The notes beneath the pieces were generated by a model. It was given only the letters and a program-made list of their open reading frames with translations. It searched no databases and had not been told where the DNA came from. This document shows positions 8,772 through 11,931 of a stretch of 15,441 bases of DNA, piece by piece (the first letter of the stretch is position 1; every line of letters starts with the position of its first letter). This DNA comes from a virus: the UHGV virus genome UHGV-0099063. One strand, 5' to 3'. The position numbers and the translations under genes are program-made.

Positions 8772-9050
8772 TCAGGCCTCAAAACTGTTGCCGCAGTCTT
8801 GAGGCTTTTCTTTTGTCAGCACCATGGCTACTTTCTTTGCCAGCTCCGCTAATTCCTCGTCTTCAACACCCCACTCCAGCACAGCCAGAAGCATGGCCAT
8901 CTTTGGGATAAAGCTGTCTTTCCATCGCGAAATTTGCGATTCATTGATCCCTAATGCATCAGCAACCTTTCGCTGACCACGTACAGCAATTCGATTTAGG
9001 ATGTTGCTTGTAATTGCATTCGCTTTCTTGCGAGTACTTGTAAGTTGCAT
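8772..9050 (-). CDS. cII: CII-like transcriptional activator
   Basis: From ATG 9050-9048: ...GINESQISRWKDSFIPKMAMLLAVLEWGVEDEELAELAKKVAMVLT, matching the recalled lambda CII core (SQISRWKRDWIPKFSMLLAVLEWGV). AAGGAA 9 nt upstream. The upstream extension in the ORF track would run through nutR. Confidence 0.8.
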   Translation of the reverse strand: MQLTSTRKKANAITSNILNRIAVRGQRKVADALGINESQISRWKDSFIPKMAMLLAVLEWGVEDEELAELAKKVAMVLTKEKPQDCGNSFEA

Positions 9051-9108
9051 ATGTAAGTATTTCCTTAACAAATAAGAAGTTATGCGCACCAGCTGATGCG
9101 CGTTGTAT

Positions 9109-9152
9109 TCCCGCATTTCGGCGGGAATGAGGACCATGACTGTTAAAGAGCG
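9109..9152 (-). promoter_or_regulatory. nutR: boxA plus boxB hairpin
   Basis: Minus strand reads CGCTCTTTAACA (boxA, plus 9141-9152), then 14 nt, then hairpin TCCCGCCGAAATGCGGGA (boxB, plus 9109-9126); located between the cro stop and the cII start. The boxB is identical to the one in nutL. Confidence 0.65.
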
Positions 9153-9159
9153 GTGTTAC

Positions 9160-9384
9160 TTATGCTGCCTGATTCGGTTTTGGAAACAGGTGTGGCAAAT
9201 CGGGGCGAATTTCGTAAGCCTTGATCTGCCCTCCAGTGGCGTTAACGATGGCGGTAACTTTCTCTGGAGAGACCAACCCGCCTTTCAGCCATTTGTGTAC
9301 TGCTGGCTGCGTTACACCACACTTGTCGGCAAGGCGCTTTTGGCTACCGACAATTTTCAAGGCTCGTTGAATTACTAAATTCAT
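9160..9384 (-). CDS. cro: Cro-like repressor (YdaS/Cro-type HTH)
   Basis: From ATG 9384-9382 (GAGG 8 nt upstream): HTH segment QKRLADKCGVTQPAVHKWLKGG. Divergent from cI across the operator region and followed by nutR. Confidence 0.8.
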   Translation of the reverse strand: MNLVIQRALKIVGSQKRLADKCGVTQPAVHKWLKGGLVSPEKVTAIVNATGGQIKAYEIRPDLPHLFPKPNQAA

Positions 9385-9407
9385 GAGCATACCTCTTGTG
9401 GTCATTA

Positions 9408-9484
9408 CTTATAACCAAAGATAACTCAAGTTATAAAAAATAGCAATAACCTTTGTTATTTTACTTTGGATAACCGTAGTTATA
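9408..9484. promoter_or_regulatory. right operator region OR: three 14-bp palindromes ATAAC-N4-GTTAT
   Basis: ATAACtcaaGTTAT (9421-9434), ATAACctttGTTAT (9446-9459), ATAACcgtaGTTAT (9470-9483), spaced about 25 bp apart between the divergent cro and cI starts, plus an extra half-site at 9411-9416. Confidence 0.65.
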
Positions 9485-9495
9485 GATTTGTGAGT

Positions 9496-10203
9496 ATGAA
9501 AACATTCGCAGAAAGACTAAATGCAGCCATGAGCTCAGCAGGGGTATCACAATCACAGCTTGCTGACATGGTTGGAATATCTCAGCCAGCCATACAGAAG
9601 ATGTCGTCCGGTAAAACAAACGGATCTCGCAAGATGGTTGAATTAGCCAATGCTTTAAAAGTGCGTCCTGAATGGCTTAGTTCTGGTATTGGTGAAATGA
9701 GGGATGGTGCACATGAAGAACCATCCAATGTCCGTGAGTCATCTTTAAAAGCTGTGGTATGGGAAGACATTAAAAGAAACGATGACGAGTTTGTTGCGTT
9801 GCCTCTTCTTAACGTTTCGCTTTCAGCTGGAAGCGGTAGCTGCGAGCTAGAGGAATCATCGGAGTTCTCTTTGGTTTTCAGAAAGCACTATCTGAAAAAG
9901 ATGGGAGTATCAGAAAGATCAGCCAAGCTAGTTAGGGTTGTAGGGCAAAGCATGGAACCAACGCTTCACGATGGCGATGTTGTTGGTGTTAACACGCAAG
10001 ATACCACAATCAGAGATGGTAAAACCTACGCTATTTGCCAGTCTGATTTGTTACGAGTAAAAACATTAATCGCCACCCCTACATCGGTGATAATCAGATC
10101 AATAAATCGCGAAGAGTACCCGGATGAAGTAATGGATAGAGATGAATTTCATGAAACCGTAAGGATTATTGGCAGAGTATTCTGGTCGTCTCATAGTTGG
10201 TAA
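9496..10203 (+). CDS. cI: CI-type prophage repressor (N-terminal HTH, C-terminal S24 LexA-like autopeptidase)
   Basis: HTH SQSQLADMVGISQPAIQKM; candidate Ala-Gly cleavage site in LSAGSG; catalytic Ser in GQSMEP and a downstream Lys in LLRVKTL. ATG 9496 lies 12 nt after the third operator with no clear SD, compatible with a leaderless pRM-type transcript. Confidence 0.9.
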   Translation: MKTFAERLNAAMSSAGVSQSQLADMVGISQPAIQKMSSGKTNGSRKMVELANALKVRPEWLSSGIGEMRDGAHEEPSNVRESSLKAVVWEDIKRNDDEFVALPLLNVSLSAGSGSCELEESSEFSLVFRKHYLKKMGVSERSAKLVRVVGQSMEPTLHDGDVVGVNTQDTTIRDGKTYAICQSDLLRVKTLIATPTSVIIRSINREEYPDEVMDRDEFHETVRIIGRVFWSSHSW

Positions 10204-10243
10204 CCGATAATCAGAAGAAGACTTACGGAAGTGCGGAGGGATA

Positions 10244-10540
10244 ATGGAATTTCTGATAGTTTTTGTTGTTGTTTTGGTCATCATTCTTTTTGTTTTGCTA
10301 AGCATTAGCAAAAAGCTATCTCAAATGATTGAACATAGCTCTAATCGCGCAAAAGAAGAAGAGCATCTAATTGATATAAAAGAGATTCTCTCTGATATAA
10401 AAATCACATTAGATGAAATAAAATACACAACAGATCTAATTGAACAGTATAAAATACCAACCCCAAACGAGAGAAAAGCAATAGATCAATATCGTATTGA
10501 CTTAGAAATCGACGAAATGCTAAGCAAAAGAAAAGACTAA
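10244..10540 (+). CDS. small membrane-anchored protein co-transcribed with cI (rex/sie-position gene), function unknown
   Basis: 98 aa; N-terminal hydrophobic helix EFLIVFVVVLVIILFVLLSI, then a charged, probably helical domain. GGAGGG 4-5 nt before the ATG; starts 40 nt after the cI stop; markedly AT-rich relative to flanks; followed by a strong terminator. Confidence 0.65.
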   Translation: MEFLIVFVVVLVIILFVLLSISKKLSQMIEHSSNRAKEEEHLIDIKEILSDIKITLDEIKYTTDLIEQYKIPTPNERKAIDQYRIDLEIDEMLSKRKD

Positions 10541-10545
10541 AAACA

Positions 10546-10572
10546 CCCGGCCTCAGCGCCGGGTTTTCTTTT
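10546..10572 (+). terminator. rho-independent terminator ending the cI operon
   Basis: Stem CCCGGC/GCCGGG (10546-10551 and 10558-10563), 6-nt loop, followed by TTTTCTTTT (10564-10572). Confidence 0.75.
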
Positions 10573-10694
10573 CCTGCCGTTCACCACCCAATCAACCATC
10601 CTCATCATAGACAAGCATCAAGCCAAAGGTAACACCTTCACCCCGCACGTAAGCCCTCAAACACCAATCAATCAGCAACATTTACAAAAATAAA

Positions 10695-10780
10695 ATACCT
10701 TTGTTATCCATCACTTATAACTTATTTACCATAAAATATAAATTAGGTTATTGACCACACCTATAACCTAAGTTATCTTT
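10695..10780 (+). promoter_or_regulatory. left operator/promoter region OL-pL
   Basis: Operator-type palindromes ATAACctaaGTTAT (10763-10776) and variant ATACCtttGTTAT (10695-10707), plus a TTATAAC half-site. Candidate pL: -35 TTGACC (10750-10755), 17-bp spacer, -10 TATCTT (10773-10778) overlapping the operator. Confidence 0.5.
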
Positions 10781-10825
10781 AAGCCATCAGCAGGACGCTG
10801 GAAGCCAAACGGAACAGATTGGCAG

Positions 10826-10866
10826 GCTCTTTAACATTGATGGGATTGTCCCGCCGAAATGCGGGA
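10826..10866 (+). promoter_or_regulatory. nutL: boxA plus boxB hairpin
   Basis: GCTCTTTAACA (10826-10836), then hairpin TCCCGCCGAAATGCGGGA (10849-10866), identical to the nutR boxB; downstream of the candidate pL and upstream of N. Confidence 0.65.
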
Positions 10867-11296
10867 ACTGAGTTTAACCAAACAGGAGGTGCCGTAATGG
10901 TGCACTAACGCGGTTAGACCGCAGCCGAAAGGCAATGCAGCAGTAATGATGCTGCCCTGAGTCGCCATTGAGCGAGCCTGCTTAGCATCGGGTTAGGGTC
11001 AATATATTAAAAGTAGCTCCGGTAAAGCAGCGCGAATGCCAGACGCGCACCGGTTATCAGCGGCGATGAAGCGGCAGAGACTCAATGGCATGAGCGCGCT
11101 CACTGCGAGAGTGTGAGTCAAAGAGTAGTTGGCTTTGGGATTGGGTGAATGCGCAGACTGATGCGATATGACCTGCACTGGCGAGGAGACGATCCTCAGG
11201 GGGTCACTAGGCGTGATAATGACCAGGCGAAGCACTAACCAAGCCGGAGATCAGTACCGTCCACCTAATCACCAAAGCCAATCATCGGAGTTCAAC

Positions 11297-11566
11297 ATGA
11301 TAATCGTTACTTATCTGGCTGATGATAACGCCAGAAATCGCCGCAGAGCACGCAGACAGGCTCAACGTGAACAGGCAATGCAAGAACAGCGATTGGCACG
11401 AAAAATTGCGCTAAAGCTCTCTGGTTGCGTCAGAGCAGATAAAGCAGCATCACTCGGAAGCCTTCGCTGCAAGAAGGCAGATGAATGCAGTGGAAGTATT
11501 TGCCTGCCAAACGTAGCTATTTACGCGGCAGGCTACCGGAAATCAAAACAACTGACGGCGAGGTAA
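11297..11566 (+). CDS. N: N-type antiterminator (P22 gp24-like) with N-terminal arginine-rich motif
   Basis: From ATG 11297 (GGAG 6 nt upstream): MIIVTYLADDNARNRRRARRQAQRE... with C-terminus LPNVAIYAAGYRKSKQLTAR, matching the recalled P22 gp24 (MTVITY...LPGVALYAAGHRKSKQITAR). The upstream in-frame extension from 11168 lacks an RBS and would bury the arginine-rich motif. Confidence 0.8.
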   Translation: MIIVTYLADDNARNRRRARRQAQREQAMQEQRLARKIALKLSGCVRADKAASLGSLRCKKADECSGSICLPNVAIYAAGYRKSKQLTAR

Positions 11567-11568
11567 TT

Positions 11569-11931
11569 ATGGGTCAGGAAGAAAAATATGAGCTTAAAAA
11601 GCTCATTGAAGAAGACGCCATAGAAGAAATTGCAGCATTAACAACAGCTATAAAGAATATTAGGTATGCGCTAAATACGCTTATCTCCTCATGCGACAAA
11701 AATAGCAGGGAATTTTTGATACTTGGCGCAGCTCTAGGAATAGTTGATGCGGCAACGCTTCACCTAATTACTCATGACGATATTCTTATTGAGCCGTATG
11801 AAACATTACTGCTTGTCAGGCAAAAAATGGCTGATGCCGCAGCAAATGGAGACATTCAACTTTACATCGACTTAAGGAAAGTATTAAGGCGAATGGTCAG
11901 AACTGAAGGAGATATCCCCCTGACAAAGTAA
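11569..11931 (+). CDS. hypothetical early protein, 120 aa, between N and ral
   Basis: ATG 11569 sits 2 nt after the N stop (start MGQEEKYELKK...). Acidic, predicted helical; no family recognised. Confidence 0.55.
   Translation: MGQEEKYELKKLIEEDAIEEIAALTTAIKNIRYALNTLISSCDKNSREFLILGAALGIVDAATLHLITHDDILIEPYETLLLVRQKMADAAANGDIQLYIDLRKVLRRMVRTEGDIPLTK

Follow-up and report, generated by a model that had tools for sequence, protein, structure and literature searches.

The stretch analysed here (the window: 15,441 nucleotides of virus genome UHGV-0099063) very probably contains the module that governs immunity and early control in a temperate, Stx1-phage-like lambdoid coliphage, with predicted CI/Cro operators and N/boxB antitermination. 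Its repeated palindromes are almost certainly operators of the repressor and Cro, and its repeated hairpin the RNA target of the N protein, as judged by comparison with related phages. Among the loci compared the hairpin is seen to go with N's arginine-rich motif (ARM) and not with the immunity module, while the operator half-site is seen to travel with both recognition helices, that of CI and that of Cro, changing when they change. The control region is that of an ordinary, lambda-like Escherichia coli phage and both kinds of site are already known in kind.

The minus strand carries cII, nutR and cro. OR, cI, a small open reading frame, a terminator, OL/pL, nutL and N follow on the plus strand (Table 1). 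CII, Cro, CI and N are matched by Pfam families. The cro start chosen at the 74-codon ATG is also that of the SH2026Stx1 annotation. CI features an HTH DNA-binding domain followed by a LexA-like S24 self-cleaving domain according to Pfam, the make-up of the repressor in a CI/Cro switch. In the translated S24 domain the Ala-Gly (SAGSG) and Ser-bearing GQSMEPT motifs can be recognized, and its catalytic Lys was picked by eye. The recognition helices read ISQPAIQKM in CI and VTQPAVHKW in Cro. The ARM of N is DDNARNRRRARRQAQREQA, with its core NARNRRRARRQ at residues 11-21, and the C-terminus of the protein is P22-gp24-like.

Table 1. Features of the immunity and early-control region (window coordinates; a dot marks sites without strand)
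Feature	Position	Strand	Basis
cII (92 aa)	8772..9050	-	Pfam Phage_CII, E 7e-45, full length
nutR boxB hairpin UCCCGC-CGAAAU-GCGGGA; stem extends to 9107-9128	9109..9126	-	exact repeat; MFE hairpin; same place in 74/80 same-ARM loci
nutR boxA GCTCTTTAACA, begins 8 nt past cro stop codon	9141..9151	-	exact repeat
cro, 74 aa from ATG 9384 (ORF reaches 9405)	9160..9384	-	Pfam YdaS_toxin/HTH_3/P22_Cro; PHROG 35 transcriptional repressor
pR (predicted), -35 TTGCTA 9446-9441, 17-nt spacer, -10 TATCTT 9423-9418	9418..9446	-	read from sequence
OR1 ATAACTCAAGTTAT	9421..9434	.	exact palindrome; half-sites conserved in CI relatives
OR2 ATAACCTTTGTTAT	9446..9459	.	exact palindrome; half-sites conserved in CI relatives
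pRM (predicted), -35 TTTACT 9460-9465 abutting OR2, -10 TAGATT 9483-9488	9460..9488	+	read from sequence
OR3 ATAACCGTAGTTAT	9470..9483	.	exact palindrome; half-sites conserved in CI relatives
cI repressor (235 aa)	9496..10203	+	Pfam HTH_3 + Peptidase_S24; translation
98-aa ORF, co-oriented with cI	10244..10540	+	PHROG 18389 ('unknown function' class), E 5e-62; no Pfam match
Intrinsic terminator closing cI operon (tIMM-like)	10545..10564	+	terminator scan
OL2 ATAAATTAGGTTAT, 1 mismatch	10738..10751	.	one-base overlap with pL -35; 25 bp upstream of OL1; equivalent site in PA28, SH2026Stx1
pL, -35 TTGACC, 17-nt spacer, -10 TATCTT	10751..10779	+	promoter scan
OL1 ATAACCTAAGTTAT	10763..10776	.	exact palindrome, within pL spacer and -10 region
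nutL boxA	10826..10836	+	exact repeat
nutL boxB hairpin	10849..10866	+	exact repeat; MFE fold; co-inheritance with ARM
Conserved structured non-coding element, 5' SD-ATG-stop mini-ORF (ATG 10898)	10885..11129	+	comparative analysis
N antiterminator (89 aa)	11297..11566	+	Pfam N_peptide, E 5e-15; PHROG 271; homologs begin at same Met

The palindrome ATAAC-N4-GTTAT has exactly four sites, about 0.01 being expected by chance, and none of 200 shuffles reached four matches. Three exact copies, 25 and 24 bp apart, lie in the 111-bp interval between the divergent cro (ATG 9384, or 9405) and cI (ATG 9496) genes, which is the three-operator organization of a lambdoid switch. The first-pass annotation had described precisely this, a palindrome repeated three times at about 25 bp between cro and cI and again in the pL region. 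Its statement that OR and OL share one operator palindrome holds exactly for OR1-3 and OL1, and with one mismatch for OL2; one perfect and one near-perfect operator occupy at pL the register of OR1 and OR2 at pR. A third OL operator is doubtful, the candidate at 10694 having two mismatches and lying outside the 24-25 bp register. Promoter pL was found by a promoter scan and the pR and pRM hexamers were assigned by eye. Predicted pR has the same layout as pL, yet its score of 8 of 12 is under the scan threshold; both pRM hexamers are kept in PA28. The cI mRNA is predicted to be leaderless as in lambda, with a start at or beside the cI ATG.

In CI relatives down to 75% identity whose helix is SQPAIQK, three ATAAC-N4-GTTAT sites persist in unchanged register, with divergence in the central 4 bp and in the DNA between operators. 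Altered helices are accompanied by altered half-sites at the same positions: ATCGC-N4-GCGAT is found with CI AQSSVNK and Cro AQSTICD, ATAGC-N4-GCTAT with CI AQPSVWK and Cro KQPSVWA, and ACAAC-N4-GTTGT with CI SQAAIQK and Cro SQQAVYK, each of these three classes comprising one to five loci. In the window a QPA core is common to the helices of CI (SQPAIQK) and Cro (TQPAVHK). The covariation of the half-site with both helices in four classes supports recognition of the operators by both CI and Cro, and with it the earlier proposal that the palindrome is the CI/Cro recognition sequence.

The solved structures nearest to the N-terminal domain of CI are those of the 434 repressor (E 1e-7) and 434 Cro (E 8e-6; phmmer against the PDB). 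The operators of phage 434 are 14 bp long, conserved in the outer bases and variable in the centre; three of them lie in OR, and its CI and Cro share recognition-helix residues. Its half-site is different (ACAA with a 6-bp centre, against ATAAC with a 4-bp centre in the window) and the window Cro, of YdaS/P22-Cro type, is not a homolog of 434 Cro. The Stx1 phages SH2026Stx1 and Stx1a_10051 have the same OR and OL palindromes as the window, and the half-sites are also the same with the PA28-type CI, which is 85% identical; no operator annotation was present in the examined regions of the SH2026Stx1, Stx1a_10051 and PA28-type records. The ATAAC-N4-GTTAT immunity type was found in Stx1-converting phages and, in a search of 5,426 complete E. 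coli genomes, in prophages of dozens of them. The lambdoid switch of the Stx2 phage 933W resembles that of the window in its three OR sites, in having no more than two clear OL sites and in the ...AAC/GTT... core of its half-sites (PMC3317979). The 933W type was experimentally tested: its operators are 15 bp long and symmetric about a central base pair, with positions 2-5 conserved (consensus G, A, A, C), and its repressor binds non-cooperatively (PMC3317979). Assignment of the window to 933W immunity, prompted by a note on the PA28 Cro, was rejected on comparing the 15-bp sites, with their other half-site, to the 14-bp ATAAC-N4-GTTAT sites of the window (PMC3317979).

The 18-nt hairpin TCCCGCCGAAATGCGGGA is present in exactly two copies, one per strand, and 0 of 200 dinucleotide shuffles gave any match to it, even at two mismatches. 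The boxA sequence also has exactly two copies, each upstream of the hairpin on the same strand with a spacer of 14 nt in nutR and 12 nt in nutL, confirming the earlier description of one hairpin in both nut sites, each after an rrn-like boxA. The nut sites, composed of boxA, spacer and boxB hairpin, are located to be transcribed from pL and, past cro, from pR. The hairpin is the MFE element of both NUT RNAs, with a stem of 6 bp in nutL and 8 bp in nutR and a CGAAAU loop. The folding z-scores of the short NUT pieces (-0.55 and -1.58) are by themselves not significant.

A tblastn search of the phage collection with the ARM peptide returned nothing, probably through low-complexity masking, and ARM loci were found by DNA and pattern searches instead. 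A pattern scan of genome contigs yielded true copies in 4 of 120 rows, the matches being mostly chance ones in GC-rich genomes. Among 80 viral loci with ARM NARNRRRARRQ, 74 have the exact hairpin upstream of N and again, inverted, 1.15-1.74 kb farther upstream; these nutL-nutR distances differ, and therefore several immunity modules are represented among the 74 loci. In two of the others nutL is present and no nutR hairpin lies within 3.8 kb; two more have neither. In mEp213 an N of this type, accompanied only by a decayed boxB and no boxA, is found downstream of a lambda-type nutL and N. The exceptions to the pairing are truncated loci or decayed copies. Phage mEpX2 carries both hairpins alongside HK620-type cI/cro and lacks the ATAAC operators. 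Conversely, across 80 loci with relatives of cI, the window cI (at 98% identity or more) is joined to the ARM and boxB of the window, to the P22 ARM with a GACAA boxB, or to ARM KAREIRKLERARKHK with boxB UGGGGAUGAUUCGUCCCCA, and the PA28-type cI comes with the phage 21 ARM and boxB. None of these cI-relative loci in which both were detected pairs an ARM with a foreign boxB, and the comparative tables display clean module swaps between boxA and boxB. The data support a match of boxB specificity to the ARM, as presumptive cognate pairs. These natural swaps agree with the view of the first-pass annotation that the hairpin marks N specificity. The boxA element would add nothing to specificity, because it is common to phages of different N types.

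The N/boxB type is not new. The comparison of boxB with those of P22, lambda and phage 21, advised in the first-pass annotation, revealed different loops, and the nut type is that of HK620 (GenBank AF335538): the 47-nt boxA-spacer-boxB query is 100% identical to HK620 nutL. The HK620 record of 2001 annotates the identical sequence as putative nutL/nutR, positioned after pL and after cro as in the window. This annotation is sequence-based and no experimental test of the HK620 nut sites was found. HK620 N was retrieved by the ARM-motif scan, and mEp213 labels its copy of this N HK620-like. HK620 differs in its immunity module, with its own cI/cro and 17-bp operators, and in its short nutL-N leader, which has a ~245-nt insertion in the window. 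Literature searches turned up no assay of binding, footprinting or antitermination with this immunity type or this N/boxB pair, and no paper was retrieved when full texts were searched for the ARM, for boxB or for strings from the leader element.

The architecture shared with lambda consists of N as first gene of the pL operon, nut sites made of boxA and a hairpin, and an N-terminal ARM, whose pattern A-x-x-RRR-x-RR-x4-Q in the window resembles the lambda ARM AQTRRRERRAEKQAQW. The differences are a C-GAAA-U loop on a 6-8 bp GC stem against a GAAAA/GAAGA pentaloop on a 5-bp stem in lambda, the absence of a Trp equivalent to lambda W18, a full rrn-type boxA against CGCTCTTA, and a P22-gp24-like rather than lambda-like sequence in the C-terminal two thirds of N. 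P22 gp24 and phage 21 N share Pfam family PF25694 and a homologous C-terminus (...CLPNVAIYAAGYRKSKQLTAR) with the window N, and their types occur naturally on the same cI backbone as alternatives to it, P22-type nut/N being that of SH2026Stx1. Their ARMs (GNAKTRRHERRRKLAIER in P22, GTAKSRYKARRE in phage 21) and boxB loops (GACAA and CUAACC, respectively) are unlike those of the window, and in each of them the left boxB differs from the right one, while the two boxB of the window are identical. Identity with the N/nut system of H-19B was rejected, the H-19B nutR boxB oligo having a P22-like GACAA loop.

A duplicated, stable and GC-rich hairpin could also be a processing or termination signal (an RNase III site or an intrinsic terminator) placed in both early operons; the lambda N leader is indeed processed by RNase III. 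This is extremely improbable for the window hairpin, as neither copy is followed by a U-run or was called by the terminator scan, each lies 12-14 nt past boxA at canonical nut positions, and the hairpin is inherited along with a particular ARM, other hairpins standing in its place where the ARM differs. It is also very unlikely that module exchange or gene conversion at recombination boundary sequences, rather than selection for protein binding, accounts for the pL/nutL conservation and the hairpin identity. Between the pL start and boxA, ~50 nt are almost the same across phages of different immunity and N types, the CUS-3 annotation labels the cI-N interval boundary sequence, and many E. coli prophage matches stop exactly at the 3' edge of boxB. 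Such an origin, which is compatible with function, suits the segment near boxA. It fits neither boxB, which differs with the ARM inside otherwise identical flanks, nor the operators, whose half-sites are kept amid diverging DNA and change with the helices of CI and Cro.

The palindromes might instead serve CI or Cro alone, the other regulator binding different or overlapping sites. The two proteins belong here to different HTH families and departures of lambdoid switches from the lambda paradigm are possible, as 933W shows (PMC3317979). It is very unlikely that this applies to the window: the QPA core is common to both helices, each of which varies along with the half-site over four operator classes, and the 111-bp OR region shows no other evident repeated motif.

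The preferred reading, of operators common to CI and Cro and of a hairpin bound by N, was built from what the analysis obtained directly: the sequences themselves, where they lie with respect to genes and promoters, and how they are co-inherited and covary with the proteins. Dimers of CI (434-like HTH with S24 autoprotease domain) and of Cro (YdaS/P22-Cro-like HTH) would bind the same 14-bp ATAAC-N4-GTTAT operators; this binding, like the promoter start points and any cooperativity, is predicted. OR1 and OR2 would cover the -10/spacer and -35 edge of pR, OR2 would abut the pRM -35 and OR3 cover the pRM spacer and -10, while OL1 and OL2 would cover pL in the same register. With operators so placed over promoters, pR and pL would be closed by repressor at O1 and O2, and pRM by an occupied OR3, as is the case in lambda and 434. 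After induction, the pL and pR transcripts would bear NUT RNAs with an rrn-type boxA (the NusB/NusE site) and boxB UCCCGC-CGAAAU-GCGGGA, whose GAAA-containing loop would be bound by the N-terminal arginine-rich helix of the 89-aa N. The loop fold is predicted, and the mode of N-boxB binding is extrapolated because the loop is a C-GAAA-U hexaloop, not the GNRA-like pentaloop of lambda and P22. N and Nus factors, with a presumed Nus dependence, would then assemble on RNA polymerase and confer resistance to termination.

The covarying element of ~245 nt inserted between nutL and N starts 18 nt past boxB and has an invariant SD-AUG-stop mini-ORF. From its comparative analysis it is classed as a member of an undescribed RNA family that Enterobacterales phages carry in leaders of operons antiterminated by N and by Q. 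Its structure is visible only in such comparison, the single-sequence fold being no better than shuffles (z -0.9, either strand). Rfam 15 had nothing relevant at gathering thresholds over the whole window or at E<=5 in 10500-11400, and ARAGORN found no tRNA or tmRNA. The Pas sRNAs of EHEC/EPEC prophages, which lie beside holin genes, were compared with the element by description; they are short and terminator-ended, and the description gave neither a match to the element nor grounds for setting them apart from it.

The locus itself adds little to the lambdoid map: one more immunity specificity and one already annotated N/boxB specificity. In practice it would help to predict superinfection immunity, and likewise cross-antitermination, between Stx phages. 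More useful than the single locus are the comparative tables; they include the four-class series ATAAC, ATCGC, ATAGC and ACAAC, whose half-site varies jointly with the helices of CI and Cro and which is directly testable. A further reading, in which the leader RNA is a new cis-acting layer on the N/nut circuit and, separately, the CI/Cro/operator series could be used as a natural recognition code for a 434-like HTH family, is tentative, with somewhat less than an even chance of being correct. If cis-acting, the leader element may play a role in, for example, translation or autoregulation of N, transcript processing, or ribosome loading beside the antitermination complex. This neighbouring RNA is the unexpected item of the region and the one likeliest to reward experiments.

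The segment 8772-11566 is a full lambdoid early-control region, in an orientation opposite to that of the usual lambda map. All elements reported by the first-pass annotation, a boxB hairpin common to both nut sites and preceded in each by a boxA, and an operator palindrome present three times between cro and cI and again at pL, are found where it placed them and far above chance. The 18-nucleotide hairpin sequence occurs exactly twice, once per strand, had no match in shuffled sequence even with two mismatches permitted, and is the minimum-energy element on folding of both NUT RNAs. The boxA GCTCTTTAACA likewise has exactly two copies, each upstream of a hairpin at a distance of 12 or 14 nt, and ATAAC-N4-GTTAT has exactly four (0.01 expected), the copies between cro and cI being spaced by 25 and 24 bp. 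Relaxed matching adds OL2, with one mismatch and 25 bp from OL1, and an off-register copy at 10694 with two mismatches.

Features of the control region and its flank, in map order
Feature	Coordinates	Strand	Evidence or position
cII	8772-9050	minus	Pfam Phage_CII, E 7e-45
nutR hairpin	9109-9126	minus	between cII and cro
cro	9160-9384	minus	YdaS/P22_Cro/HTH_3
additional ATAAC half-site	9411-9415		within 9411-9424
OR1	9421-9434		ATAAC-N4-GTTAT
OR2	9446-9459		ATAAC-N4-GTTAT
TTTACT (putative pRM)	9460-9465		adjoins OR2 immediately
OR3	9470-9483		ATAAC-N4-GTTAT
TAGATT (putative pRM)	9483-9488		overlaps OR3
cI	9496-10203	plus	HTH_3 + Peptidase_S24
98-aa ORF, function unknown	10244-10540	plus	PHROG 18389 match
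intrinsic terminator	10545-10564	plus	3' of 98-aa ORF
OL2	10738-10751		one mismatch
pL, TTGACC-17-TATCTT	10751-10779	plus	promoter scan
OL1	10763-10776		ATAAC-N4-GTTAT
nutL hairpin	10849-10866	plus	after pL, before N
leader element	10885-11129	plus	between nutL and N
N, 89 aa	11297-11566	plus	Pfam N_peptide, E 5e-15; PHROG 271
ORF overlapping the N 3' end	11485-11931	plus	PHROG 7374 (function unknown), residues 29-148 only

OL1 occupies the spacer and -10 of pL, and the last base of OL2 is the first base of its -35. The minus strand on the cro side reads GGTTAT-TGCTA (-35 TTGCTA), 17 nt with OR1 inside, then TATCTT; because this layout is the same as that of pL, the region is read as a putative pR, which scores 8/12, under the promoter-scan threshold. 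On the cI side, TTTACT and TAGATT, whose last base is 7 nt upstream of the cI ATG, probably form pRM, and their placement predicts that, as in lambda, the cI message is leaderless. Phage PA28 keeps both hexamers, while its cI and cro are ~79.5% identical in DNA to those of the window. The additional half-site (ATAACCAAAGATAA), 10 bp cro-ward of OR1 and with a 4-bp overlap with it, is kept in window-like and PA28-type OR regions and absent from locus L136.

CI relatives with the recognition helix SQPAIQK, down to 75% identity, have three ATAAC-N4-GTTAT sites at unchanged distances from the cI start, while the central four bases and the inter-site DNA vary freely (in locus L155, ATAACCCTAGTTAT, ATAACTTTTTTTAT and ATAACAGAAGTTAT). 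Remoter relatives carry 5-N4-5 palindromes at the same positions with other half-sites, and both their CI and Cro helices are altered; three of the operator classes are supported by just one to five loci each.

Operator half-sites and the helices of CI and Cro found with them
Operator	CI	Cro
ATAAC-N4-GTTAT	(I/V)SQPAIQKM	V(T/S)QPAVHKW
ACAAC-N4-GTTGT	VSQAAIQKI	LSQQAVYKW
ATAGC-N4-GCTAT	MAQPSVWKL	VKQPSVWAW
ATCGC-N4-GCGAT	MAQSS(V/I)N(K/R)L	KAQSTICDW

The joint variation of half-site, CI helix and Cro helix is the best evidence obtainable short of protein work that the palindromes would be the shared target of CI and Cro. The half-site, kept with SQPAIQK and altered alongside the two helices, probably determines immunity, as had been proposed. 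The pentapeptide QPSVW is common to CI and Cro of the ATAGC class, and the OR regions and cro genes of loci L155-L164 form a natural specificity series inside one CI/Cro family.

The closest solved structures to the N-terminal domain of the window CI are 434 repressor and 434 Cro. These proteins also bind 14-bp sites, in which the outer bases are conserved and the inner ones vary. The immunity of 933W was ruled out as a match, since its half-site differs and its operators are 15 bp long, symmetric about a central base pair (PMC3317979). Neither annotation nor test of operators of the ATAAC-N4-GTTAT type was found in records or literature.

The nut part of the observation had been recorded before: boxA, spacer and boxB of HK620 (AF335538, 2001) are 100% identical to those of the window and are annotated there as 'nutL; putative N-utilization leftward', with a corresponding nutR. 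Records of HK and mEp phages annotate the boxA, and that of CUS-3 annotates the interval as boundary sequence. The H-19B system (Sen laboratory) was ruled out, its nutR boxB oligonucleotide having a P22-like GACAA loop. The arginine-rich motif (ARM) of the window N resembles that of lambda (A-x-x-RRR-x-RR). The boxB loop CGAAAU tops a GC stem of 6-8 bp; unlike the lambda pentaloop with its one extruded base, it may form a genuine GAAA tetraloop with a C-U mismatch as the closing pair.

A motif scan of IMG/VR, from which the best 80 loci were retained, all with the ARM TYLADDNARNRRRARRQAQREQ, found two exact copies of the 18-mer in 74, one upstream of N and the other, in inverted orientation, 1.15-1.74 kb further on. 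The distance between the two copies varies with the immunity module, ATAAC operators being found only in the 1,740-bp class; mEpX2 has both hairpins and the same ARM with an HK620-type cI/cro, and no ATAAC palindromes. Among the exceptions, two loci have nutL without a nutR hairpin within reach, two with short flanks lack either hairpin and one is truncated upstream. The last, mEp213 (L167, 75-130 and 1479-1500), carries two N genes (373-705 and 1858-2130): a lambda-type N behind a lambda-type nutL and, downstream of these, an HK620-type N. Upstream of the latter are the leader element and only a decayed boxB with a broken stem (GCCCUCCGAAAUGCGGGA; GCCCTCCGAAATGCGGGA), with no boxA, and this gene looks like an orphan N left over from recombination.

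A second sample comprised 80 loci retrieved with the window's CI. CI at least 98% identical to that of the window is found with its own ARM and boxB, with the P22 ARM and boxB (left GCGCUGACAAAGCGC, right ACCGCCGACAACGCGGU), and with a 68-aa N of ARM KAREIRKLERARKHK and boxB UGGGGAUGAUUCGUCCCCA. This 68-aa N has a GTG start, the ARM KAREIRKLERARKHKEATAKRK and the same C-terminus, and its boxB, TGGGGATGATTCGTCCCCA, is in both nut sites; the pair (L097 4331-4730; also L099, L107, L117, L118, L125-L127) was matched to no named N type. PA28-type CI (85% identical) comes with the phage 21 ARM and boxB. The P22 and phage 21 hairpins, whose comparison had been proposed, each come with their own ARM, and no ARM was paired with a foreign boxB in the 80 loci. 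Such natural module swaps, in which boxB follows the ARM across immunity modules, argue that the hairpin is the likely determinant of N specificity. The boxA and ~50 nt upstream are common to all N types compared, which places the exchange junction between boxA and boxB and implies that boxA carries no phage specificity. Between the pL start and boxA, ~50 nt (10780-10836) are near-identical in mEpX2, SH2026Stx1 and PA28 despite differing immunity and N types, and many E. coli prophage matches stop right after boxB, at query position 1769 (10868 in the window); ~10837 and ~10868 look like module-exchange junctions on either side of boxB.

In mEpX2, CAAAGAGTAGTTGG lies directly 3' of boxB, where the window has ~250 additional bases. 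These include a structured element of ~245 nt, unannotated in GenBank and RefSeq records and 69-90% conserved in phages of E. coli, Hafnia, Klebsiella, Edwardsiella and Providencia. Pattern scan and profile search of fetched loci yielded 106 distinct copies, from Enterobacterales phages, and four more true copies are in Kluyvera, Silvania and Pseudocitrobacter genomes and in genome locus L379. Covariation strongly supports the structure: an RNAalifold consensus of 32 pairs, built on 42 representatives under 85% identity, shows canonical pairing in 98.1% of cells and two-sided compensatory changes in 18 pairs, against at most 87% and 15 pairs in column shuffles and 25-44% with slid partners. 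The element has no conserved reading frame, no terminator seen at its 3' end, no Rfam 15 match and no match in a full-text literature search by its sequence. At its 5' end a Shine-Dalgarno and ATG, fixed 16-17 nt upstream of the first hairpin, are followed by a stop after 0-5 further codons of variable sequence (52 of 57 anchored copies have this pattern). Of the best 80 HK620-type N loci, 11 have it between nutL and N; it is also found 5' of N genes whose ARM differs, between Q and late-operon tRNA or holin genes, and in other intergenic gaps, oriented as the neighbouring genes at all sites checked. It may act in cis in the leader (on N translation or autoregulation, on processing or on ribosome loading) or be a stable RNA that acts in trans.

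The 98-aa ORF, between cI and the terminator, takes the place of lambda rex or HK620 hkaS; its N-terminus appears hydrophobic on by-eye reading of the translated DNA, and a Pfam search gave no match. It may be an exclusion or lysogenic-conversion gene expressed from the prophage. The limits of the PHROG 7374 match suggest that the ORF after N really starts at ~11569, just past the N stop.

The nearest deposited phage is the Stx1a-converting phage Stx1a_10051 (98.9% over 85% of 2.7 kb), and N has a 100% match in one IMG/VR contig. The cro-to-nutL block is present at a coverage of at least 80% in 88 of 5,426 complete E. coli genomes. The region had been read correctly and is a lambdoid control region of the ordinary sort, combining a known nut type with an uncharacterised yet conventional immunity type.
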